From: Escherichia coli
GTDB lineage: Bacteria; Pseudomonadota; Gammaproteobacteria; Enterobacterales; Enterobacteriaceae
NCBI RefSeq assembly: GCF_001677475.2
Contig: NZ_CP015229.1
Length of the DNA: 64,000 bases
Strand: one strand, 5' to 3'
Positions 17,920 to 32,845 of this stretch are shown here, in pieces (position 1 is the stretch's first letter; every line of letters begins with the position of its first letter). The notes beneath the pieces were generated by a model that had not been told where the DNA came from, made no database searches, and saw only the letters and a list, made by a program, of their open reading frames with translations. The position numbers and the translations under genes are program-made.

Positions 17920-19038
17920 TCAAATAACCAACTTAACCCATTCCTGACCTCGAGTATCGTTATAGCGATCGGTGGTTGCCTGGACTTTATGTCCTAGTAA
18001 TGTTTTTGTATCGATACCCTGTGCACGGTACAGCCGTTCTGATAGAGAGCGTTGTTCATGAAATGTTGGCGGAGTTTTTCCTGCTGGTGGAATTATCCCA
18101 GCCAGATCCCGTGCTTTGGCAAAGTAGTCGCTCAGGTTGTCTTTACTCATCGACTTCGGTTGTTTCTGGTGCCGACTATGGATTAGATATGGACTTAATA
18201 TTCTGTCTCGGCACCCATCAATAACTTCTTTTAACGTTATCCCAATGGCATCACAGCGTAGTGTAAGCGGTAACGCCAGACGCATTCCGGTTTTTCCTTG
18301 GGTGATATGCAAGTGTTCGTTCCACACATCTGAAAAACGCATGTGGCAAATGTCATCACGGCGCTGACCAGTAACAATCGCAAGAAGCATTGCGTTACGG
18401 ATAAAGTGTTTTTCAGGCGTTGCGTTGTAAATTTTTTGCCAGTCTTCCAGGGTGAGTCTGGCTCTGGTTACTTTAGGGATTGGTTTACGGGTAGCCTCCG
18501 GAGGATTCCATCCAGGAGGAACTTCCCCTGCATGCTGTGCTTCTTTATAAATATCAAGCCATAATCCGCGATTTACTCTCGCTGTGCTGACCATGTCTTT
18601 ATCCAGCCACTCATCCAGTATTAATGCAAAGTCTCTTACTTCCAGTTCTTTCAATGGGTGGTTTCCCAGACGGGAAACCAGGAATGCAGCCATTCGCGCT
18701 TTTTCTTTGTGGGTTGTAGCTGCAATATCTCCATTTTTCAGGCGCGCGTCCTGTATTTTCAGATATCGATCAACCCATGCCTTTAATCTGATACCCCGAC
18801 GTTTTGTTGCTGATGGACTTTCATCAATTTTGCGCATGAAATATTCAGCTTCTGCTGCAGCTATTCGCTGATTGGCTGTGGAAGCGATTTTTTCTGCCTT
18901 ACCTTTGTCTGTTCCGAGTCCGTGAAATTTTCCAGTCACAGGATTTTTATACTGGTAGTAAACTCTGCCAGTTCTGCGATCAAACTTTTCGTAAAGACCG
19001 GCTACGTCAGTGCTGTTTTTTCGTGGCCTCGGTGACAT
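17920..19038 (-). CDS. int: Phage integrase (tyrosine recombinase)
   Basis: 372-aa ORF with C-terminal tyrosine-recombinase catalytic region (R...HxxR...Y), next to the disrupted host gene. Confidence 0.85.
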   Translation of the reverse strand: MSPRPRKNSTDVAGLYEKFDRRTGRVYYQYKNPVTGKFHGLGTDKGKAEKIASTANQRIAAAEAEYFMRKIDESPSATKRRGIRLKAWVDRYLKIQDARLKNGDIAATTHKEKARMAAFLVSRLGNHPLKELEVRDFALILDEWLDKDMVSTARVNRGLWLDIYKEAQHAGEVPPGWNPPEATRKPIPKVTRARLTLEDWQKIYNATPEKHFIRNAMLLAIVTGQRRDDICHMRFSDVWNEHLHITQGKTGMRLALPLTLRCDAIGITLKEVIDGCRDRILSPYLIHSRHQKQPKSMSKDNLSDYFAKARDLAGIIPPAGKTPPTFHEQRSLSERLYRAQGIDTKTLLGHKVQATTDRYNDTRGQEWVKLVI

Positions 19039-19337: not shown

Positions 19338-21809
19338 TTAAAAATCAGCCTGATTCGGGATCAGTTTTTGCCAGATAGCTGAAACGTATTTTGCCTGGTG
19401 ACGAGCGTCATCAAGTGCATTATGGCGCTCACCTTCGAATGGGATAGCAGTTCTGGCATCGAAGTCTATGGTTTTCCCCAGCTCAACGATTGTGCGTACA
19501 TCGCGATCGTTGTAGTAACGCCACGGGCAGGGGATCCCCTGCCGTTCGTATGAACGGCGCAAAATCGTGTTGTCGAAGTTGGCTCCATTTCCCCAGACCT
19601 GAACAAAAAACTCACCGGAGTTTTCGGCGATAAATTCCCGCAATTGCAGTAGTGCATCATCTAACGGGATTTCATCGGTCATAATGGCAGACTGCGCTTC
19701 ACGTGATTGCTTCAGCCACCATTTAATGACGTCACGATCAATGACTCCGCCAGCAGTATCCAGATCGATGGTCTTGCTAAATTCCGGTCCCATATCACCG
19801 GTTTGCGGATCGAAAAATATTGCACCTATTGAGATAATCGGGGCATCAGGATTTTTTCCCATGGTTTCAAGGTCGATCATCAGATGAATCCCCGCTCTGC
19901 TGGTGGATGTGAGATTATGATGACTGTTCATCTTAATTAAGGGATCTGTCGCCTCGCCAGTTTTATTATCGCTGGCGTGATGCTGATTGCCGCCAGGGTT
20001 CTCCTTGTGTGGATGTTCAGCGCCTTCCATTTCCTCCGGATCATTTTCCTGAACTTCAGGCTGATTCTCTTCATCGAATATTTCCTGGTATGTTGCGTCA
20101 CCCATCACCGCGCCACAATCAGGGCAGTTGCCGCCACCGCTCTGACCGCAGGCTGTGCAGACTTTTTCCGGTTCCTGTTGCGCTACTGGCTCAGGTTGTT
20201 TCGTTTCTGGCTCGTTTTGTTGCGTATTTGGGCTGTTTTGTTCCGCTTTCTGGTCGTTCTGTTCCGTTTCTTGCTGGTTCTGGTTCACAGAATCGCGGGT
20301 TTCAATCCCCTTCACCCATTTCGGATCATTCGGATCGCTAATCCCTGCAACAAATTCACCACGTGATACTGCAAGCAGTTCATCGGCGTCATGCTGGCTG
20401 ATATTGGCTGCCTGCATAATTTTGTTTACTTCGTCAGCGGTAACTTTTACCGGCCCTGGTTGTGCGGTCGTGTCAGATGCACCAGTATTTTGTTGTGAAC
20501 CTGAGTATGTACCGTTTTTGCGGGCGAAATATTCTTCTTTCGTGATTTCAGTAGCCCCGGCAGCCAGTGCCTTATCCAGACCAGAAAGTTTGTTTGCGCG
20601 ACCGTATTTTTCGCCATCCTTGTCGGTGAAGAGGAAGTAGAATGGCCCCTCACGCTCTACAGATGGTTCGACTTCCACTTTGCATTCGGTTTTTTCGTTG
20701 TCCGGAATTGCCGTTTCCACTGCATCAGTTTCTGGTACTGGCGACGAGAGAGTATCAGTTGCGCTCTGATTTCTTCCTTCATCTTCAAACACGCCCTTTG
20801 TAGTCAGGTATTCAGTAATGTATTTGTTCAGTGCCACAGGGTCTTTGTGAATGTCGATCGGACGTTCACGAACAAGGCCAAAAATAGTCTGGCGGTCGTA
20901 GCGAAGGGCATCAGGCTGTTTGCGCATTGATGCCGAGATACGCTTCCAGTCTTCGCGGTCGTTGTCGATAACTTCATTTTTTGCCCAGCGATGGATGCTG
21001 CCATCAATGTTTCCGACATCCACATCACCAGGCCAGAGAGCGTAGGCCAGTTCGTCATCCAGTGTTTTCCATGTCTGCTTGTATTCGCGATGAGTGGCAG
21101 CAATGACCGGGCTGATTTTTCCTGTTGAATTTTCAGTGTGCTGTTGATTGGCTCTGGCGCGGGCGAGATCAACAACAGACGTGTATTTTCCGGTTTCCTT
21201 GCGTTCACCTTCGCGACGTTTTTTCCAGATGCGCATCTCTGCCTGAATTTCGGGCCATTTGGCACCAGGCTTACATTTATGCTTAACCCACCCGATGGCA
21301 TGCAGCTTAAGCTCCGGATACATGGCGTTAACTTCTGGCATTTTCATCAACGCTTCAACGATATGTCCGTCGAATGTTGCCATGTCTTCCTGCAACAATT
21401 CCTGCGCGCTAATCACCATATCAACGGTGATGTTTTCACATGTACCGAACTTAACCAGGACCGCGTTCTGTACTTCAAGGGACAGCTTGTCAAAATTGAC
21501 GTTAATAGGATCGGATTCTGGTTCGACCGGAATAAAGGAAGCGGATTCCTCATCCCAGCGGTTTTCCTGCATATATTCGGTATCCCAGGAGTCGATAGCA
21601 GGGCGGGGCATGCCGGGTTTATCTTCGCAGACAAGAAATTTATAAGCGCAGTCCTGAGCAGCAGGATATTGCTCCAGGAATTGCCAGGTAAATTTGGCAC
21701 GGGCGCGGCGTTCATCACCGGCTTCAATGGCAGTGGCTACAGCAACTGCGCCCTCTTCTTTTATTGCCTGTTCGTCCGGAATGGCGGCGCAAATAAAGAC
21801 TTTACTCAT
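19338..21809 (-). CDS. Large phage exonuclease: acidic/Q-rich linker, zinc ribbon, C-terminal DnaQ-like (DEDDh) 3'-5' exonuclease domain
   Basis: 823-aa ORF. C-terminus has LMIDLETMG...GANFDNTIL...HNALDDARH motifs; CTACGQSGGGNCPDCG zinc ribbon mid-protein. Functional name inferred. Confidence 0.6.
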   Translation of the reverse strand: MSKVFICAAIPDEQAIKEEGAVAVATAIEAGDERRARAKFTWQFLEQYPAAQDCAYKFLVCEDKPGMPRPAIDSWDTEYMQENRWDEESASFIPVEPESDPINVNFDKLSLEVQNAVLVKFGTCENITVDMVISAQELLQEDMATFDGHIVEALMKMPEVNAMYPELKLHAIGWVKHKCKPGAKWPEIQAEMRIWKKRREGERKETGKYTSVVDLARARANQQHTENSTGKISPVIAATHREYKQTWKTLDDELAYALWPGDVDVGNIDGSIHRWAKNEVIDNDREDWKRISASMRKQPDALRYDRQTIFGLVRERPIDIHKDPVALNKYITEYLTTKGVFEDEGRNQSATDTLSSPVPETDAVETAIPDNEKTECKVEVEPSVEREGPFYFLFTDKDGEKYGRANKLSGLDKALAAGATEITKEEYFARKNGTYSGSQQNTGASDTTAQPGPVKVTADEVNKIMQAANISQHDADELLAVSRGEFVAGISDPNDPKWVKGIETRDSVNQNQQETEQNDQKAEQNSPNTQQNEPETKQPEPVAQQEPEKVCTACGQSGGGNCPDCGAVMGDATYQEIFDEENQPEVQENDPEEMEGAEHPHKENPGGNQHHASDNKTGEATDPLIKMNSHHNLTSTSRAGIHLMIDLETMGKNPDAPIISIGAIFFDPQTGDMGPEFSKTIDLDTAGGVIDRDVIKWWLKQSREAQSAIMTDEIPLDDALLQLREFIAENSGEFFVQVWGNGANFDNTILRRSYERQGIPCPWRYYNDRDVRTIVELGKTIDFDARTAIPFEGERHNALDDARHQAKYVSAIWQKLIPNQADF

Positions 21810-22450: not shown

Positions 22451-22508
22451 AAAAAGGGCGGCAGAGCAGTCACGGAGTAAAACTGATACCGCCAAATGTC
22501 ACCAGAAT
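22451..22508 (-). ncRNA. dicF: DicF-like small regulatory RNA
   Basis: Minus-strand sequence ATTCTGGTGACATTTGGCGGTATCAGTTTTACTCCGTGACTGCTCTGCCGCCC + T-run matches recalled E. coli DicF except 2-3 nt; lies ~170 nt upstream of dicB as in Qin. Confidence 0.7.
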
Positions 22509-24241: not shown

Positions 24242-24718
24242 TTAAGTTCCTGTCTTGGTGATGTTCTGGCTTTTCCGTTTTGATTCTTGATTTTTCAGAT
24301 AGTTAGCTACCTTCATTTCCATTGCGGCAATGTAGGCGCGAACGTCATGATCAACCCAACTAGGCTCCGTAGCATTTCCAGATAAGAGGAAAGCCACAAT
24401 TGCTCTTTTTTCATCAGAGGCGGCTTGATAAAGGCTGTTTATGTCTAAAAGTTCACTTTTTGTATCTGAAGTGGATGGGGTTGGTATGGGGTATTCGTTA
24501 AGCCCCCAATGCTCTGGACCAACCACATCAGAAAAGAAACGCCATAGTTCTGGAAGTTTGTCTTTACTTATCGAACCTTTCTTAATCCAGTCATGGATTG
24601 ATGGTGGTTGGACTTTGAAATGACGTGCGATTTCCGCCTTTGATTTGACGGCTCCTGATGCAATTTTTTTGTTAATGGCCTGCTCTATCGCTCGGCCTAA
24701 GTCTTTACCACTAAGCAT
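24242..24718 (-). CDS. Phage repressor, XRE-type HTH, no S24 peptidase domain (RacR-like size)
   Basis: 158-aa ORF; N-terminal HTH (SKAEIARHFKVQPPSIHDWIKKGSISKDKLPEL); divergent from cro-like gene; C-terminus lacks Ser/Lys peptidase motifs. Confidence 0.7.
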   Translation of the reverse strand: MLSGKDLGRAIEQAINKKIASGAVKSKAEIARHFKVQPPSIHDWIKKGSISKDKLPELWRFFSDVVGPEHWGLNEYPIPTPSTSDTKSELLDINSLYQAASDEKRAIVAFLLSGNATEPSWVDHDVRAYIAAMEMKVANYLKNQESKRKSQNITKTGT

Positions 24719-24842
24719 TGCTTAATAGTCTCCTATGCGCATCGCGTTAGGCAATACCTACTCTCGAAGCGTTAGGCATAGCCTATTGACAATCACATTA
24801 GGCTAAGCCTAATATTATTGTGTGTTTTTTGGAGTTCATTCG
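24719..24842. promoter_or_regulatory. Putative OR/PR-PRM operator region
   Basis: Seen in sequence: perfect palindrome TTAGGCTAAGCCTAA plus related half-sites GCGTTAGGCA and GTTAGGCATAGCCTATTGACA in the divergent intergenic region. Confidence 0.5.
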
Positions 24843-25582: not shown

Positions 25583-26566
25583 GTGTTCGGGGGTTTTATG
25601 AGCAGCAAGCTTCATGGTCTTGTCTGGGAAGGATGCGCCTTCACCGGCATGATCTTATCCCGGGTGGCAGTGATGGCCCGTCTTGCAGACTACAGCAATG
25701 ACGAGGGCGTGTCATGGCCTGCTATTGAAACTATCCGGCGTCAGATCGGTGCAAGAAGTGAATCCACAGTGAAATCGGCTATTGCAGAACTGGCGAAAGA
25801 GGGCTGGCTGACGAAGGAAGAGCGTAAGGTCGGTGGGCGTAATGTAAGCAATATCTATCGGCTTAATGTGGAAAAACTCGAAGCAGCAGCTGCGGCGGCG
25901 CGTGAGTCATATAAACCGAAAAGAAAAATTAGCCCGGCAAAAAATGACCCGTTAACAGTTGACCCGTCAAATATTGACCCCTCAACGGTTGACCCGTCAA
26001 ATTTTGATGGATCAACTGTTGATAAAAAACTGCCGATTAGGGGGACGATGATTGACCCCGATCAGTCAGTATTAAAACCTGATCCGTCAGATGAAAGATC
26101 TTCTTGTCCTGACGTTTCACTGCCGGACAAAAAACAATCATCACCAGTTGAGCGATTTCTGGAGAAACACCCGGATGCGCATACCTGGAATGTGCAGAAG
26201 CGACAGTGGGGTACCCGTGAGGATGTCGCCTGTGCGCAGTGGATTTGGGGACGGGTTGTTGCGTTGTATGAACAGGCCGCCAGTGATGATGGTGAGGTAT
26301 CACGCCCCAGAGAACCTAACTGGACGACCTGGGCGAATGATGTGCGCATGATGCGTATGCTGGATGGACGTAGTCACCGGCAGATTTGTGAAATGTTTGG
26401 GCGTGTCCAGCGGGATTCGTTCTGGGTAAAAAACATCATGAGTCCGGCAAAACTCCGGGAAAAATGGGATGAGCTGGTTATTCGTCTGGGGCGTTCGCCT
26501 GTACAGCGTTGCGTGAATCACATTTCTGAACCGGATACCGAAATTCCGCCGGGGTTCAGGGGGTAA
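25583..26566 (+). CDS. Replication initiator (lambda O-like) with internal origin iterons
   Basis: 327-aa ORF; N-terminal winged-helix-like region; central repeated peptide DPLTVDPSNIDPSTVDPSNFD encoded by DNA iterons. Confidence 0.6.
   Translation: MFGGFMSSKLHGLVWEGCAFTGMILSRVAVMARLADYSNDEGVSWPAIETIRRQIGARSESTVKSAIAELAKEGWLTKEERKVGGRNVSNIYRLNVEKLEAAAAAARESYKPKRKISPAKNDPLTVDPSNIDPSTVDPSNFDGSTVDKKLPIRGTMIDPDQSVLKPDPSDERSSCPDVSLPDKKQSSPVERFLEKHPDAHTWNVQKRQWGTREDVACAQWIWGRVVALYEQAASDDGEVSRPREPNWTTWANDVRMMRMLDGRSHRQICEMFGRVQRDSFWVKNIMSPAKLREKWDELVIRLGRSPVQRCVNHISEPDTEIPPGFRG
25944..26018. repeat. Replication-origin iterons (about 5 direct repeats of TTGACCCGTCAA-like units, ~15 bp period)
   Basis: Seen in sequence: ATGACCCGTTAA, TTGACCCGTCAA, TTGACCCCTCAA, TTGACCCGTCAA, TTGATGGATCAA inside the O-like gene. 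Confidence 0.55.
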
Positions 26567-26608
26567 GTGCTGATTTGAGGTCATGAAGTTATTTTCTCAG
26601 GAGAGTTT

Positions 26609-27010
26609 ATGGGGGCTATTTATACCGAAGAACAGCGGGAAAGGTTACAGCGTCACATCGTTGACCTTGTACGTAAAAACGGGCGTATGACAATGCCACA
26701 ACTGGCATCGGCAACATATGCTTCACATGATTCCATTCGCCGGTACCTGAAGATGCTGGTGAGCCAGGGCGAAGTGTATGTTGTCAGCGGAAAAGGGGTA
26801 TTCCTTTCAGAGAGAGTTTACCGTGAATGGCTGGCAAGTTCGGCAAAAAAATCAAGGGTTATCCGCAAACCAGCACAAAAACAGGGTAAGGCCGGAGTAC
26901 AACCCTACGACCGGCACCAGAACGTAATTTGCCGGGAATGTCGTAACAGCGAATCAATGCAGCGGGTACTGGCTTTTTACAGGGGTGGATTTCAGGAGCT
27001 CGTATCGTGA
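26609..27010 (+). CDS. Hypothetical replication-region protein (133 aa)
   Basis: ORF only; occupies the position of a P/helicase-loader gene but is too small and lacks ATPase motifs. Confidence 0.35.
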   Translation: MGAIYTEEQRERLQRHIVDLVRKNGRMTMPQLASATYASHDSIRRYLKMLVSQGEVYVVSGKGVFLSERVYREWLASSAKKSRVIRKPAQKQGKAGVQPYDRHQNVICRECRNSESMQRVLAFYRGGFQELVS

Positions 27011-27315
27011 AAAAGTGGGTGCGTGCCGAGATACTGATTCTACGGCAGTGTGCGGGAACAATGACGGTGGAATGCATCGGGATGCTTATTGGTCGTAGTG
27101 AGGCTGCGGTCAGAACGAAAGCGCGGGAACTGGGTATTAGTATGATGTTACGGGGTGATTATCACCAGTCAGCAAAATATCCGCAGAGTGATATTGAGCT
27201 GGCGCGACAGCTGCATCAACGTGGCGTGTCCAGGAGAGAAATCGCCAGAAAATTTGGAATGCCGCTGCGCACAGTGAATAACTACGTTTATTTCGACAGG
27301 AGGGTGTCTGCGTGA
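27007..27315 (+). CDS. Hypothetical HTH protein (102 aa)
   Basis: Possible HTH (GVSRREIARKFGMPLRTVNNY). Confidence 0.35.
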   Translation: MKKWVRAEILILRQCAGTMTVECIGMLIGRSEAAVRTKARELGISMMLRGDYHQSAKYPQSDIELARQLHQRGVSRREIARKFGMPLRTVNNYVYFDRRVSA

Positions 27316-27557
27316 AAATCCTGTATCAGGATTACGGCCCGGTGGGACAGGTGGTTATCAGCAGTACTGTAATGGAGTTCCGGAAGCATAACCGTGTGGT
27401 GGATGCAGTGCTGTTAGCCTGTCCGGGGATATCGGCGAGCCGTGCAGGTGTGTTTTTTATGAAGACGAAGTTATATGGCAGTACAGCGTGGATAAAGAAG
27501 GCGTACCGGGTAGCGTTGCAGGAGGTAAACAGTGAGCGAATCGGCAACCATTCTTGA
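27312..27557 (+). CDS. Hypothetical protein (81 aa)
   Basis: ORF only, overlapping neighbours. Confidence 0.3.
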   Translation: MKILYQDYGPVGQVVISSTVMEFRKHNRVVDAVLLACPGISASRAGVFFMKTKLYGSTAWIKKAYRVALQEVNSERIGNHS

Positions 27558-28020
27558 TATGTCCTGTGGCAGTCGTATGTTCTGGTTCGATAAGAATGAC
27601 GACCGGGCGATATTTAGCGATATCAGAAAAGAAGAGCACACATTATGTGATGGACGACGCCTGATAATTAGCCCTGACCTGATAGCAGATTTTCGTGCAT
27701 TACCATTTGCAGACGCATCGTTTCCGGTTGTTGTATTCGACCCTCCGCATCTTGAGCGTGTTGGTGATAACGCCTGGATGGGAAAGAAATATGGACGGCT
27801 GAATAAAGATACCTGGCGTGATGATTTGCGGCAGGGATTTAAAGAAGCCTTTCGTGTGTTGTGGCCACACGGTGTTCTGATTTTTAAATGGAATGAAACG
27901 CAAATACCTGTCCGCCAGATATTGGCACTAACCGACGCGAAACCAATCATCAGCCAGCGCACCGGTAAGAACGATAAAACACATTGGATTATTTTTGTGA
28001 AGGAAGCGACCAGTGGGTAA
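27532..28020 (+). CDS. Phage N6-adenine DNA methyltransferase (small Dam-like)
   Basis: 162-aa ORF with DPPH motif (VVFDPPHLERVG), characteristic of N6-adenine/N4-cytosine methyltransferases; nin-region position typical of lambdoid phages. Confidence 0.55.
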   Translation: MSESATILDMSCGSRMFWFDKNDDRAIFSDIRKEEHTLCDGRRLIISPDLIADFRALPFADASFPVVVFDPPHLERVGDNAWMGKKYGRLNKDTWRDDLRQGFKEAFRVLWPHGVLIFKWNETQIPVRQILALTDAKPIISQRTGKNDKTHWIIFVKEATSG

Positions 28021-28267
28021 ATCAAAATGCCAGGTTTATGGCAACAAGATAGAACCGTGTACGGCACTGGCAAACTCCCTTGAGCATGATGCTGAATACA
28101 CGACGCGAAAAGGTCTGCTGATATACGAAATCTGGAATGAGAGTTTAACTCGCGGCCCTGATTTGGTGATGTTGCGATCCGGTGAATTTTCTAAATCACC
28201 AGTTCGGGTTTCATTTTTCCCGTTCTGCGGTGAAAGTCTGAAAACGTGGGAGAACAGAAATGAATGA
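28013..28267 (+). CDS. Hypothetical nin-region protein (84 aa)
   Basis: ORF only. Confidence 0.3.
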   Translation: MGKSKCQVYGNKIEPCTALANSLEHDAEYTTRKGLLIYEIWNESLTRGPDLVMLRSGEFSKSPVRVSFFPFCGESLKTWENRNE

Positions 28268-28571
28268 AATTAGAGAAATACCAGTAGAACGTGATGAATA
28301 TGGCTGCTGGACACATCCAGAATATGAAAAATTCTGTGACGGTCGGGAATATATTTCAACGGAAGAGTTTAACGCCTGGATGAAGGAAAATAATCTTCAG
28401 TGGACTATTTGCAGCATGGATGAAGATTATTTAAATCCGGTTGCAGATGACCCCGATATTTCCGCCTGGGAACCGGAACGACCAGAGGGCGAAGGCTGGT
28501 TTATTAGCTCCATTCATGATACTGAAGATGGTCCGGTTTGTGTCTGGTTGCGAAACAAGGTGATGGCATAG
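28260..28571 (+). CDS. Hypothetical nin-region protein (103 aa)
   Basis: ORF only. Confidence 0.3.
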   Translation: MNEIREIPVERDEYGCWTHPEYEKFCDGREYISTEEFNAWMKENNLQWTICSMDEDYLNPVADDPDISAWEPERPEGEGWFISSIHDTEDGPVCVWLRNKVMA

Positions 28572-28874
28572 ATGAGAATAGAAAAAGCGAAAGCACAGCT
28601 CAGGATAATGCTTGCTGGTCCGGCTGCGAGTTATATGACACATTCACCAGCCATAAAGAAGGTTCTTGATGAACTGGAAGCCAAAGACAAGCGCATTGCA
28701 GAACTGGAGGCGAGGGAAATCCAGTTACCTGCTGGCTTCGACCTTCGATATGGACACCCGATAAATGCTGATGAGCGACATGTGATGATACCTAAAGAAA
28801 ATGGCAACTGGATTTATCGGACTGACTTAGAGCACGTACTACGTGTTGCAGGGATTCGAATTAAAGGAGACTAA
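28572..28874 (+). CDS. Hypothetical nin-region protein (100 aa)
   Basis: ORF only. Confidence 0.3.
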   Translation: MRIEKAKAQLRIMLAGPAASYMTHSPAIKKVLDELEAKDKRIAELEAREIQLPAGFDLRYGHPINADERHVMIPKENGNWIYRTDLEHVLRVAGIRIKGD

Positions 28875-29232
28875 CGTGGAAATAAAACCAGAAGATGAGT
28901 TAAGTAATATTGTTTTATTTCCGGTAAAAGAGGATGACCCACGTAATCAGGTTAATTTTCTTTATGAGCCATCGGAAAGACCATATTGTCATCACGCCTC
29001 TGTCCGGGTTGACGAAAAAGAGCGTCAGGTCCGCTGTAAAATCTGCGGTGCAGTTGTGGAGCTATTTGACTGGATGCTCTCTGTGGCGAAAAGAGAAACC
29101 AGACTGGCAGATGATGTAAGGATCTTGCGCCAGGAGGAACGGGAAAGGCGGAGAAATATAGAAAAGCTAATTCAGATTGAGCGTAACGTGAAAGCGCGGA
29201 TACGCAGGGTGACAAAATCCAGAACTGAATAA
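28843..29232 (+). CDS. Hypothetical nin-region protein with CxxC zinc-ribbon motif
   Basis: ORF; CKICGAVVE motif; basic C-terminus. True start possibly GTG near 28877. Confidence 0.3.
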   Translation: MLQGFELKETNVEIKPEDELSNIVLFPVKEDDPRNQVNFLYEPSERPYCHHASVRVDEKERQVRCKICGAVVELFDWMLSVAKRETRLADDVRILRQEERERRRNIEKLIQIERNVKARIRRVTKSRTE

Positions 29233-29280
29233 TTAAATTTAGCTCTGTTAAAAATTTAATCCTTAACCGGAGGTATATCA

Positions 29281-29493
29281 ATGTCAAACGCACAGAAAGT
29301 TATTAACGCTGAAAAATATAACGAGTGGGTGAAAAAGTTCTCAGAGCAGATTTTTAAAATTACTGGCGACGAGAATGCGGCAAAAAATGAATTAGAGCCG
29401 TGGACACCTGAAGGTGTCGACCCAAATTATTGCTGGTGGGATGTTGATCCAGTTGATGCTGCAAATGAAGCTATGAGTTATCACAACGATTAA
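29281..29493 (+). CDS. Hypothetical protein (70 aa)
   Basis: ORF only. Confidence 0.3.
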   Translation: MSNAQKVINAEKYNEWVKKFSEQIFKITGDENAAKNELEPWTPEGVDPNYCWWDVDPVDAANEAMSYHND

Positions 29494-29528
29494 TGTCAGG
29501 AGGCCGCCCGAAAGGGCGGTAATGAAAA

Positions 29529-30362
29529 GTGACTGAATTAACCAAAGAGCAATTAATCGAAGAAGCCAAATTAAAAATAGCGATTGCGAAATGCTACCCC
29601 AGTTCAGGGATGGCACGGGTAGAGGGCGAGTTATTCAAAATTGCACTGGCATCGCTGGAAGCAGAACCAATAGGTGCTTTCCACATTGTAGAACAGCAAG
29701 TTGACGGAACAAGTTACTATATCAAGGATGGGGAATGGCCTATTGATACTGGGATTATTGAAGTCTACGCCGCCTCACCGATGACGGTAGTGCTGAACGA
29801 TGTATCTGGACCTCTTGCTCTTGCTTACAAAGAGCTTACACCTGCGATTATGCGCAACCATATCGCTGTATTCGAACGATACGGAATAACCCCAAACGAT
29901 AGCATTACTACAATTCATGCGCTTCGAATTGCGCTGGATGGCATAGAGCGGAGCGACGCCATGCTTCATGGACGTCAGCCATGCCATCAAATTACCGCCT
30001 CAATGGCAAAAGCTATTGCGCTTAAACTTGGTGCCGAACTGAATAACGAAGAAGCAGAGATTTTCGCGGATGGGTATAACACCGCCATGCTTCATGCCGA
30101 AAACTTTCGGGAAAATAAGAATTCGTCAACCAATAATTTTCGGATAACCTCGGAAACGTCAACCAACTCTCCGGCAATCCCTGATGAGGTGTTGTCCGCA
30201 ATCCTGAAGGTCGCCAGGCTTCGTGCAGATTTCGATGCTTCTGAAGGTGACAGGCGAGGTATCGGTGGTTGTCTGGATGAGGCCGAGCAAGAACTTATCG
30301 TTACCATTAACAAATACGCCAGTCAGATCGCAGTAGAAGCGATACAGGGGGCGCACCAATGA
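29529..30362 (+). CDS. Hypothetical nin-region protein (277 aa)
   Basis: ORF only. Confidence 0.35.
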   Translation: MTELTKEQLIEEAKLKIAIAKCYPSSGMARVEGELFKIALASLEAEPIGAFHIVEQQVDGTSYYIKDGEWPIDTGIIEVYAASPMTVVLNDVSGPLALAYKELTPAIMRNHIAVFERYGITPNDSITTIHALRIALDGIERSDAMLHGRQPCHQITASMAKAIALKLGAELNNEEAEIFADGYNTAMLHAENFRENKNSSTNNFRITSETSTNSPAIPDEVLSAILKVARLRADFDASEGDRRGIGGCLDEAEQELIVTINKYASQIAVEAIQGAHQ

Positions 30363-30470
30363 GCCGGCCCGATGCATTTGCAGGCGTTGCTATAGCTATT
30401 GCTTTTCCAGTATATGTTATTTGTCGGTGGGGGTAAAAACGTTCGCCGGAATTCACACCAAGGGAGGGAA

Positions 30471-30575
30471 TATGTCGGATGATATTTCACTGGTAATGGA
30501 AGGCGCTCTGGCTGTTATTGCTGTTGTGGGTGTTTACTGCCTGGTTGTGTTTTTGATGGATCGCCTGGGGAACTG
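30471..30575 (+). CDS. Putative small hydrophobic peptide (34 aa)
   Basis: Hand translation: MSDDISLVMEGALAVIAVVGVYCLVVFLMDRLGN, single TM-like peptide; not in ORF track (<60 aa). Confidence 0.3.
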
Positions 30576-30763
30576 AATTCATTCCGTATGGGAATTCCCA
30601 TATCGGGCAAAAACGGTTTGCTGTAAAGCGAGAGTTAAGTAGAATTGCTGCGGGTGCTTGAGGCTATCTGCCTCGGGCATGCCGCCGTAAGGCAGACAGA
30701 GAAAAGCCCCAGTTAACATTACGCGTCCTGCAAGACGCTTAACATTAATCTGAGGCCATATCT

Positions 30764-30976
30764 ATGACTTGCACACGTAGGTTAGCCTCTTACGTGCCGA
30801 AAGGCAAGGAGAAGCAGGCTATGAAGCAGCAAAAGGCGATGTTAATCGCCCTGATCGTCATCTGTTTAACCGTTATAGTGACGGCACTGGTAACGAGGAA
30901 AGACCTCTGCGAGGTACGAATCCGAACCGGCCAGACGGAGGTCGCTGTCTTCACAGCTTACGAACCTGAGGAGTAA
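30764..30976 (+). CDS. mok: Mok-like in-frame N-terminal extension reading frame of the hok toxin gene
   Basis: 70-aa ORF MTCTRRLASYVPKGKEKQAMKQQK... containing the hok frame, as recalled for chromosomal mokC/hokC. Confidence 0.5.
   Translation: MTCTRRLASYVPKGKEKQAMKQQKAMLIALIVICLTVIVTALVTRKDLCEVRIRTGQTEVAVFTAYEPEE
30821..30976 (+). CDS. hok: Hok/Gef-family type I toxin
   Basis: MKQQKAMLIALIVICLTVIVTALVTRKDLCEVRIRTGQTEVAVFTAYEPEE, near-identical in pattern to recalled Gef/HokC. Confidence 0.8.
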   Translation: MKQQKAMLIALIVICLTVIVTALVTRKDLCEVRIRTGQTEVAVFTAYEPEE

Positions 30977-31044
30977 GAGACCTGGCGGGGGAGAAATCCC
31001 TCGCCACCTCTGATGTGTCAGGCTTCCTCAACGCACCCGCACTT

Positions 31045-31073
31045 AACCCGCTTCGGCGGGTTTTGTTTTTTCT
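31045..31073 (+). terminator. Rho-independent terminator downstream of hok
   Basis: Seen in sequence: hairpin CCCGCTTCGGCGGG followed by T-run. Confidence 0.45.
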
Positions 31074-31140
31074 GTGCATTCTGGTTTACAATTCGCACGC
31101 CAGCCTGAACAACTGGCACCTGCTGCGCCAGCAGAGACAA

Positions 31141-31422
31141 CCGATGGCGCACGATACCAAATTACACAATTCTGATGATTCTGCCGTTTTTGCCAGCAGG
31201 CACGGGCTGCGTTCTCACGCATTCAAATATGACTGGTATCAGCACGATCCCTGCACTGAAGAACAGGCCGAATGGCTGATTCATAACTACCGCAGACGTG
31301 GGTATGAGTTTAAGAAAGCCCTCAGTCTCGATTATCGTCACTGGATAATCTACGTCAGACTCCCTTATTCCGAACGCCCGCCGCGTCCATCCCGCACATT
31401 CCAGCAACGGATCTGGAGGTAA
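31141..31422 (+). CDS. Hypothetical protein (about 92 aa from internal Met of ORF 31015..31422)
   Basis: ORF only; start uncertain. Confidence 0.3.
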   Translation, partial: PMAHDTKLHNSDDSAVFASRHGLRSHAFKYDWYQHDPCTEEQAEWLIHNYRRRGYEFKKALSLDYRHWIIYVRLPYSERPPRPSRTFQQRIWR

Positions 31423-32485: not shown

Positions 32486-32845
32486 ATGCGTATAGAATTT
32501 GTTTTGCCTTACCCGCCGACGGTGAACACCTACTGGCGACGCCGTGGCAGCACGTATTTTATATCGGAAGCCGGTAAGCGTTATCGCCGTGATGTGGCAC
32601 TTATTGTTCGCCAGCAGCGGCTGAAATTAAATCTGTCCGGAAGGCTGGCGATAAAGGTTATCACAGAGCCGCCGGATAAGCGCCGTCGTGATCTGGACAA
32701 TATCCTGAAAGCACCGCTGGATGCGCTGACGCATGCGGGGCTTCTCATAGACGACGAGCAGTTTGATGAAATCAATATTGTGCGCGGTCTGCCTGTTCCT
32801 GGTGGGCGGCTGGGGATAAAAATCACAGAGCTGGAGTGCGCATGA
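32486..32845 (+). CDS. rusA: Holliday-junction resolvase RusA
   Basis: 119-aa ORF aligning by eye with E. coli RusA (PYPPTVNTYWRRRG, RRRDLDN, GRL...ITE). Confidence 0.8.
   Translation: MRIEFVLPYPPTVNTYWRRRGSTYFISEAGKRYRRDVALIVRQQRLKLNLSGRLAIKVITEPPDKRRRDLDNILKAPLDALTHAGLLIDDEQFDEINIVRGLPVPGGRLGIKITELECA

Follow-up and report, generated by a model that had tools for sequence, protein, structure and literature searches.

A stand-alone minimal class I methyltransferase from the early region of a Rac-like prophage of Escherichia coli, member of a phage family separate from Dam

The product of a 162-codon ORF in a Rac-like lambdoid prophage of E. coli is best read as a stand-alone, stripped-down class I SAM-dependent amino-methyltransferase from a family that is carried by phages and separate from Dam. 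The prophage adjoins potC/potD in the stretch of 64,000 nucleotides studied here (hereafter the window). The initial annotation had described this ORF as a small orphan methyltransferase with a DPPH motif related to Dam, and while its coordinates were exact and both profile and fold searches confirmed a small methyltransferase with DPPH, the kinship with Dam did not survive our comparisons. The gene and its family are already known, being catalogued in RefSeq, UniProt, PHROG and PADLOC.

The ORF, 162 codons plus a stop, begins with a GTG codon that lies two codons downstream of an in-frame TAA and is preceded by a Shine-Dalgarno sequence (Table 1). Its start falls within the 3' end of ORF 27312-27557, with an overlap of 26 nt, and its last 8 nt are shared with the beginning of the next ORF, 28013-28267; these overlaps with both flanking ORFs indicate tight packing within one operon. 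In E. coli 08-00022 a 100% identical copy is annotated by RefSeq with the same start and stop, and there the product is named "class I SAM-dependent methyltransferase", and the UniProt entry A0A0C2ENM2 ("Methyltransferase") is exactly the same protein. The exact 162-aa sequence was found on 278 contigs, and the gene is present in about 16% of complete E. coli genomes. One search returned 4493 homologues (best E 1.9e-103), with 76-96% identity across Enterobacteriaceae among the matches listed, and an exhaustive search resolved into 1934 clusters at 50% identity, so this is clearly a real gene. An ORF of 200 aa on the opposite strand, 27471-28073 (-), spans the entire gene, but every line of homology support falls on the + strand, so that this is almost certainly a shadow ORF.

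Table 1. Positions of the methyltransferase gene, its motifs and the surrounding prophage features in the window, and of the two-methyltransferase cassettes in other phages
Feature	Position	Strand	Remarks
Integrase	17920-19038	-	
RacR-like prophage repressor	24242..24718	-	divergent from early operon; RefSeq annotation of identical region
P_R-like sigma-70 promoter, TTGACA-18-TAATAT	24786..24815	+	10/12 matches; consensus match only
O-like replication initiator	25583..26566	+	upstream boundary of nin-equivalent region
Shine-Dalgarno AGGAGG	27520..27525	+	6 nt before methyltransferase GTG (direct reading)
Methyltransferase CDS	27532..28020	+	minimal class I SAM-dependent, 162 aa; PHROG 954; PADLOC MTase_II PDLC03288; WP_000004205.1
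Motif I, SAM-binding loop LDMSCGS, residues 8-14	27553..27573	+	D9 and G13 at least 90% conserved
D30-I31-R32, end of strand beta2	27619..27627	+	D30 and R32 invariant
Beta-hairpin, residues 34-46	27631..27669	+	sole length-variable core segment
D53-F54, putative motif III	27688..27693	+	at least 90% conserved
Motif IV DPPH, residues 70-73	27739..27750	+	invariant; right after strand beta4
RusA	32486-32845	+	just upstream of Q
Antiterminator Q	32836..33531	+	PF06323, E 1e-87; downstream boundary of nin-equivalent region
Two-methyltransferase cassette, phage ZF40	L009 2492-5118		
Two-methyltransferase cassette, phage RavenCo17	L005 1418-3468		
Two-methyltransferase cassette, phage Javan501	L003 2986-4222		

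Profile searches placed the protein as a full-length member of PHROG 954, 'DNA methyltransferase' (E 3.6e-86, residues 3-160), and of the PADLOC MTase_II model PDLC03288 (E 8.9e-71, residues 6-159 of a model with 169 positions), with a further match to the PADLOC orphan-methyltransferase model oMTase PDLC03730 (E 1.2e-46); the names that PHROG, PADLOC and RefSeq give to the family are computational annotations. RefSeq calls a 96%-identical copy a TRM11 family methyltransferase, and the labels given by depositors conflict, ranging over "DNA methyltransferase", "methylates cytosine residues in DNA", "DNA cytosine methyltransferase", "SAM-dependent methyltransferase" and "UbiE". The label 'methylates cytosine' on ORF50 of phage A118 is likewise an annotation, in a family whose labels disagree over the target base. 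A search of NCBIfam with the protein matched no family, and we found no curated Pfam or NCBIfam model dedicated to this one. Searching the PDB with the single protein gave no match and with the family profile only generic methyltransferases plus a weak match to Trm11, and no solved structure of a member emerged from either search. The searchable literature yielded no biochemical or methylome characterisation of any family member and no paper on a DPPH-type motif IV.

The family is widely distributed. With tblastn it was found in 253 phage records from many hosts, which include Streptococcus, Vibrio, Acinetobacter, Porphyromonas, Listeria (A118 ORF50), Gordonia and Corynebacterium as well as Lactobacillus, Enterococcus, Staphylococcus, Bacteroides and Mannheimia, and it spans temperate phages of Proteobacteria, Firmicutes, Actinobacteria and Bacteroidetes, pathogens among their hosts (E. 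coli/STEC, Salmonella, S. pyogenes, S. pneumoniae, Listeria, Acinetobacter). These phage homologues are mostly 45-65% identical to the E. coli protein, which is unusually high between phyla for a phage protein. The core of the family measures about 155 aa, and longer relatives of 248-304 aa (P0013, P0064 and P0098, 248 aa each; P0005, 279 aa; P0124, 304 aa) carry non-conserved N- or C-terminal extensions in which no domain is recognisable. Many enterobacterial copies share a C-terminal extension of about 90 aa, conserved among the 248-aa forms and without a Pfam match, which may have arisen by fusion with the downstream ORF or may be an added module. Fused domains were considered as a clue to function and set aside, as the relatives offered just one DUF6291 and one weak ASCH match. 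Truncated or split copies also occur, such as gp36 of Salmonella phage Oslo (378 nt) and cluster members of 119-148 aa.

The absence of a methyltransferase fold, which the initial annotation had named as the result that would overturn it, was not what we found. In addition to the PHROG and PADLOC matches, an AlphaFold2 model computed from a 96-sequence family alignment (pLDDT 95.2, pTM 0.89) contained the seven strands of class I SAM methyltransferases in a Rossmann-like beta-sheet. The motifs run in the canonical order I-II-III-IV within the 162 aa, making up a complete SAM-binding and catalytic set. Both class I hallmarks, the Gly-rich motif I loop after beta1 and an acidic motif II residue, are present, D30 standing at the end of strand 26-30, and from class I architecture we infer that D30 is the motif II residue binding the SAM ribose; D53-F54 would correspond to motif III and contact the SAM adenine. 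The tetrapeptide DPPH, preceded by VVVF (VVVFDPPH, residues 66-73), directly follows strand beta4 (residues 64-69 in the model), the canonical position of motif IV, where it conforms to the (D/N/S)-P-P-(Y/F/W/H) pattern of amino-methyltransferases. It is not a chance tetrapeptide, because D70, P71, P72 and H73 are all invariant in the 96-sequence alignment, F-DPPH occurs in 115 of 122 family representatives and the motif sits at the motif IV position. Invariant in the same alignment are also D30, R32, P48 and R108. Motifs of the type (D/N/S)PP followed by an aromatic residue or His are the signature of methyltransferases acting on exocyclic or planar amino groups, and most (D/N)PP-aromatic/His enzymes act on nucleobases. 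As far as can be read from a motif, DPPH would therefore indicate amino-group methylation, a signature that N6-adenine and N4-cytosine methylation in DNA and N2-guanine or N6-adenine methylation in RNA have in common.

The model predicts no helix before residue 82. Where helices aA to aC would normally lie there are loops and the beta-hairpin of residues 34-46, into whose tip, after residue 40, insertions of up to 12 aa are found in 52 of the 96 relatives; this hairpin may be the element that sets substrate specificity. Only 5 residues follow the last strand, beta7, and a C-terminal target recognition domain is absent. The family core is mildly basic (median pI 8.4) and has seven conserved Lys/Arg positions (R15, K21, R32, K86, R108, K119 and K157). 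A Foldseek search ranked generic small-molecule-type and RNA methyltransferases, not DNA methyltransferases, as the nearest structures, and the best-ranked DNA methyltransferase, M.TaqI, appeared at rank 21 (E 1.2e-4, TM ~0.5).

We next compared the protein with the established classes of DNA methyltransferases, beginning with Dam. A Pfam scan of the ORF with E values up to 10 gave no match to MethyltransfD12 (PF02086), PF05869 or N6_N4_Mtase (PF01555), and only sub-threshold matches to the generic Methyltransf_11 (20.2 bits against a cut-off of 21.2) and Methyltransf_25. Among the 96 relatives the two generic families matched 92 and 77 sequences, respectively, N6_N4_Mtase matched 25 weakly (best E 3.1e-4), and the Dam families PF02086 and PF05869 matched none. 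The positive controls behaved as expected of them, E. coli K-12 Dam reaching PF02086 at 5e-81 and orf13 of phage HP1 reaching PF05869 at 7.1e-75, and hhalign of the family profile gave a probability of 0.4% against each of these two Dams, with alignments confined to 8-11 residues around motif IV (11 for K-12 Dam). The description as Dam-like, with neither Dam family nor an above-threshold PF01555 match behind it, thus has to be dropped, and Dam family membership is rejected by Pfam for the ORF and its 96 relatives, by hhalign with positive controls and by the fold search.

The architecture leads to the same separation. Motifs I and IV are 55 residues apart, with strands beta2 to beta4 filling the gap, and this spacing in canonical order excludes both the alpha-class layout (motif I, target recognition domain, motif IV) and the beta-class layout (motif IV before motif I). 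Dam of E. coli and T4, an alpha-class enzyme, shares with the prophage protein SAM dependence, the class I fold and a DPP-aromatic/His motif IV, but in Dam a large target recognition domain separates motif I from a DPPY near residue 181 of 278, whereas the prophage protein lacks that domain, and it has neither the alpha-class profile nor the motif I-TRD-DPPY arrangement. The small phage Dam of PF05869, represented by HP1 orf13, is closer in size (173 against 162 aa) and is also an orphan from the early region of a temperate phage, showing that a DNA methyltransferase this small is feasible, yet the two have no detectable sequence relationship and the ORF does not match the PF05869 profile. The Dam proteins of T1 and VT2/933W are presumably of this small type too. 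Beta-class enzymes of PF01555 have the permuted order, while here motif I precedes motif IV, without an above-threshold PF01555 match. The gamma class, to which M.TaqI and the HsdM-type enzymes belong, resembles the protein in linear order, M.TaqI running from motif I through IV to VIII, but gamma-class enzymes have NPPY/F and recognise their target either through a large domain at the C-terminus or through a specificity subunit encoded separately, and the prophage protein ends after beta7.

Prophages are known to encode non-specific adenine DNA methyltransferases, as in the case of Hia5/Hin1523. A further prophage enzyme of this kind, M.EcoGII, is a beta-class protein of 349 aa in which DPPY comes first, a target recognition domain lies in the centre and FxGxG comes last; this orphan is not expressed in its lysogen and is thought to be switched on at induction, conferring broad protection against restriction (PMC5778455). 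The ORF is about half as long, its motifs run in the reverse order and it lacks a target recognition domain; it is as a prophage orphan, silent in the lysogen and induced, that M.EcoGII serves as a functional model for it. The m2G RNA methyltransferases Trm11, TrmN/Trm14 and RsmC have THUMP or other RNA-binding modules or act on assembled-ribosome substrates, whereas the ORF has no such module, the THUMP domain of Trm11, Trm14 and TrmN included, and its similarity to the m2G RNA methyltransferase domains is no better than to generic methyltransferases.

The genomic context is that of an early phage operon. The P_R-like promoter, which diverges from the RacR-like repressor gene, heads an early rightward operon that begins with YdaS/Cro-like and YdaT genes and includes the methyltransferase gene. 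Between the O-like gene and the methyltransferase lie a DUF977/Ren-like gene, a gene for an HTH protein and an 81-aa ORF; on the 3' side there follow six small ORFs with no assigned function, hok/sok, and then DUF968, RusA and the antiterminator Q. The placement in a nin region made by the initial annotation is topologically fair, the gene lying between the O-like gene and RusA/Q with everything on the + strand. Its claim that no restriction gene is adjacent also held: scanning the neighbouring ORFs over 25583-30362 with Pfam, PHROGs and PADLOC gave no restriction-endonuclease or defence family, in scans beyond whose reach a novel nuclease without a profile would lie. The methyltransferase is an orphan. 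Before the gene, the only candidates for an internal promoter were weak 9/12 consensus matches, at the frequency expected by chance. Since no convincing internal promoter precedes it, we infer that its transcription depends entirely on the early promoter under repressor control and that the lysogen does not express it. With the gene in this operon and without a strong promoter of its own, the proposal that it alters host methylation from the prophage is unlikely.

Other features of the prophage were recorded alongside. Immediately downstream, the small ORFs at 28013-28571 (+) share 82-89% nucleotide identity with the phage-plasmids P7, D6, SJ46 and JL22 (upf86.8/upf87.4 in P7) and also with Rac-SA53 and mEp460; they form a mosaic module that lambdoid prophages exchange with P1-like elements. 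Strain 08-00022 is not colinear with the window 3' of the methyltransferase (28800-31400 against L001 13300-15900): the positions of DUF968, RusA and Q are shifted by about 556 bp, and a 277-aa ORF at 29529-30362 occupies the place where 08-00022 has a DUF551 pseudogene. The hok/sok-type toxin-antitoxin locus, located between the methyltransferase block and DUF968 at 30652-30826 (+), matches Rfam sok RF01794 at 110.6 bits, corresponds to hokD in the RefSeq copy and is followed by a strong terminator-like hairpin at 31045-31062. Downstream of Q are two prophage tRNA genes, tRNA-Met(CAT) and tRNA-Arg(TCT), at 34822-35075 (+), and an STnc100 sRNA match is found at 35877-36052. On the - strand, the DicF antisense sRNA (22456-22507, Rfam RF00039, 77 bits) adjoins dicB of the Rac-like prophage, and an 823-aa 'exonuclease' in a RecE-like position (19338-21809) has a C-terminal domain of the Rv2179c-like 3'-5' exoribonuclease family (4.5e-66).

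Relatives elsewhere occupy comparable surroundings. In eight annotated phages the methyltransferase always lies in an early replication/recombination module, with no neighbour gene conserved among the eight. In three unrelated phages, ZF40, RavenCo17 and Javan501, the family gene overlaps an adjacent DNA methyltransferase gene of different chemistry, a C5 enzyme in ZF40 (gp21) and RavenCo17 (gp61) and an N6_N4 enzyme in Javan501, to which it may be translationally coupled. Another DNA methyltransferase is encoded within 4 kb in 13 of 80 IMG/VR loci, a C5 enzyme in 10, an N6_N4 enzyme in one and an HP1-type Dam in two. The ORFs immediately upstream in these 80 loci fall into 46 clusters (largest, 9) and those downstream into 42 (largest, 10). 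A conserved partner subunit, either Trm112-like or a restriction enzyme, was considered and rejected, the flanking ORFs being unconserved in the 80 loci and the eight annotated phages; there is no obligate partner gene.

On balance we lean towards the view that the protein is an early-expressed orphan DNA amino-methyltransferase, with adenine N6 a likelier target than cytosine N4, that would modify replicating phage DNA and stay silent in the lysogen. DNA itself is favoured as the substrate by a little, given how PHROG and PADLOC classify the family, its setting in replication modules, its clustering with other DNA methyltransferases and the existence of a phage DNA methyltransferase of 173 aa. 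Upon induction or infection, transcription from the P_R-like promoter would yield the enzyme together with the replication proteins, and it would transfer a methyl group from SAM to the exocyclic amino group of a base in the replicating phage DNA. This would most likely be N6 of adenine, N4 of cytosine being possible; adenine is preferred because Asp, and not Ser, occupies the first motif position, which is the usual, and weak, rule of thumb for telling the two apart. The amino group would donate a hydrogen bond to D70, and the flipped base would be stacked upon by H73. Specificity would be short or relaxed, because there is no separate target recognition domain, and it might be read by the variable hairpin together with the conserved loop that follows motif IV (residues 74-94). 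Progeny DNA would in this way leave the cell already protected against restriction in the next host, whereas in the lysogen the RacR-like repressor would keep the gene silent. For this silence M.EcoGII provides the precedent, and for a small phage DNA methyltransferase HP1 orf13 (PF05869) does.

Several observations weigh against DNA. The structural neighbours are generic or RNA methyltransferases, with M.TaqI no higher than rank 21; judging from the model, flipping a base out of duplex DNA would be hard to explain for 160 residues with neither a target recognition domain nor helices aA to aC; and the 45-65% identity across phyla fits a universally conserved target at least equally well. We give some credence, though limited, to the idea that the real target of this helix-stripped minimal amino-methyltransferase may not be a specific site in duplex DNA. 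One option would be context-independent methylation of A or C in replicating or single-stranded DNA, much as M.EcoGII does at twice the size, and the other a universally conserved RNA or nucleotide-derived molecule. Either kind of target would account for an invariant DPPH whose His stands where an aromatic residue is usual, for the lack of a partner gene and for the 45-65% identity between phyla. A serious rival, even if we consider it unlikely, is an amino-methyltransferase that acts on RNA (N2-guanine or N6-adenine of tRNA or rRNA), like the catalytic domains of Trm11, TrmN, RsmC and RsmD, the last of these being an m2G RNA methyltransferase alongside the others; in lytic growth such an enzyme would act on an RNA of host or phage that is universally conserved. 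The RNA methyltransferases among the structural neighbours, the missing target recognition domain and the conservation across phyla all suit it. Opposed to it are the lack of a THUMP or other RNA-binding domain, Pfam giving only the two sub-threshold generic matches, similarity scores that are equalled or exceeded by those to dozens of unrelated class I enzymes, the position of the gene in replication/recombination modules, often beside genuine DNA methyltransferases, and the inclusion of the family in the PADLOC restriction-modification models as Type II or orphan methyltransferases.

Less probable still is a protein or small-molecule methyltransferase with no role on nucleic acids, acting on Gln or Lys amides or amines as PrmC and KMT9 do or on a nucleotide-derived metabolite or signal. 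The invariant (D/N)PP-aromatic/His motif after beta4 is a hallmark of planar amino substrates that are mostly nucleobases, and the conserved basic positions and the confinement of the family to phage early regions, where it clusters with DNA methyltransferases, likewise speak against it. The truncated and split copies and the absence of helices aA to aC might instead suggest a catalytically dead or decaying remnant in a defective prophage, but we regard this as very unlikely: the catalytic and SAM-binding residues are intact and conserved or invariant in the family, the AlphaFold2 model is very confident, an intact ORF follows a strong ribosome-binding site, and functional temperate phages of many phyla keep this compact architecture. 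A Dam methylating GATC, of the alpha class of E. coli and T4 or of the small HP1/T1/VT2 type, is the least credible reading of all; the protein is indeed small, phage-encoded and an orphan, its DPPx motif recalls the DPPY of Dam and HP1 orf13 shows that phage Dam comes in a similar size, but membership in either family was refuted by Pfam and hhalign.

As annotated, then, the gene is routine, while its family is under-studied. A useful correction follows for annotation, namely that the gene should be neither labelled Dam nor presumed to act on GATC. With its unusual invariant DPPH, the family ranks with the smallest putative nucleic-acid methyltransferases. If it does methylate broadly, this would matter for the escape of phages and prophages from restriction and might possibly provide a compact methylation tool, and if its target proves to be RNA, it would represent a new kind of phage takeover function.
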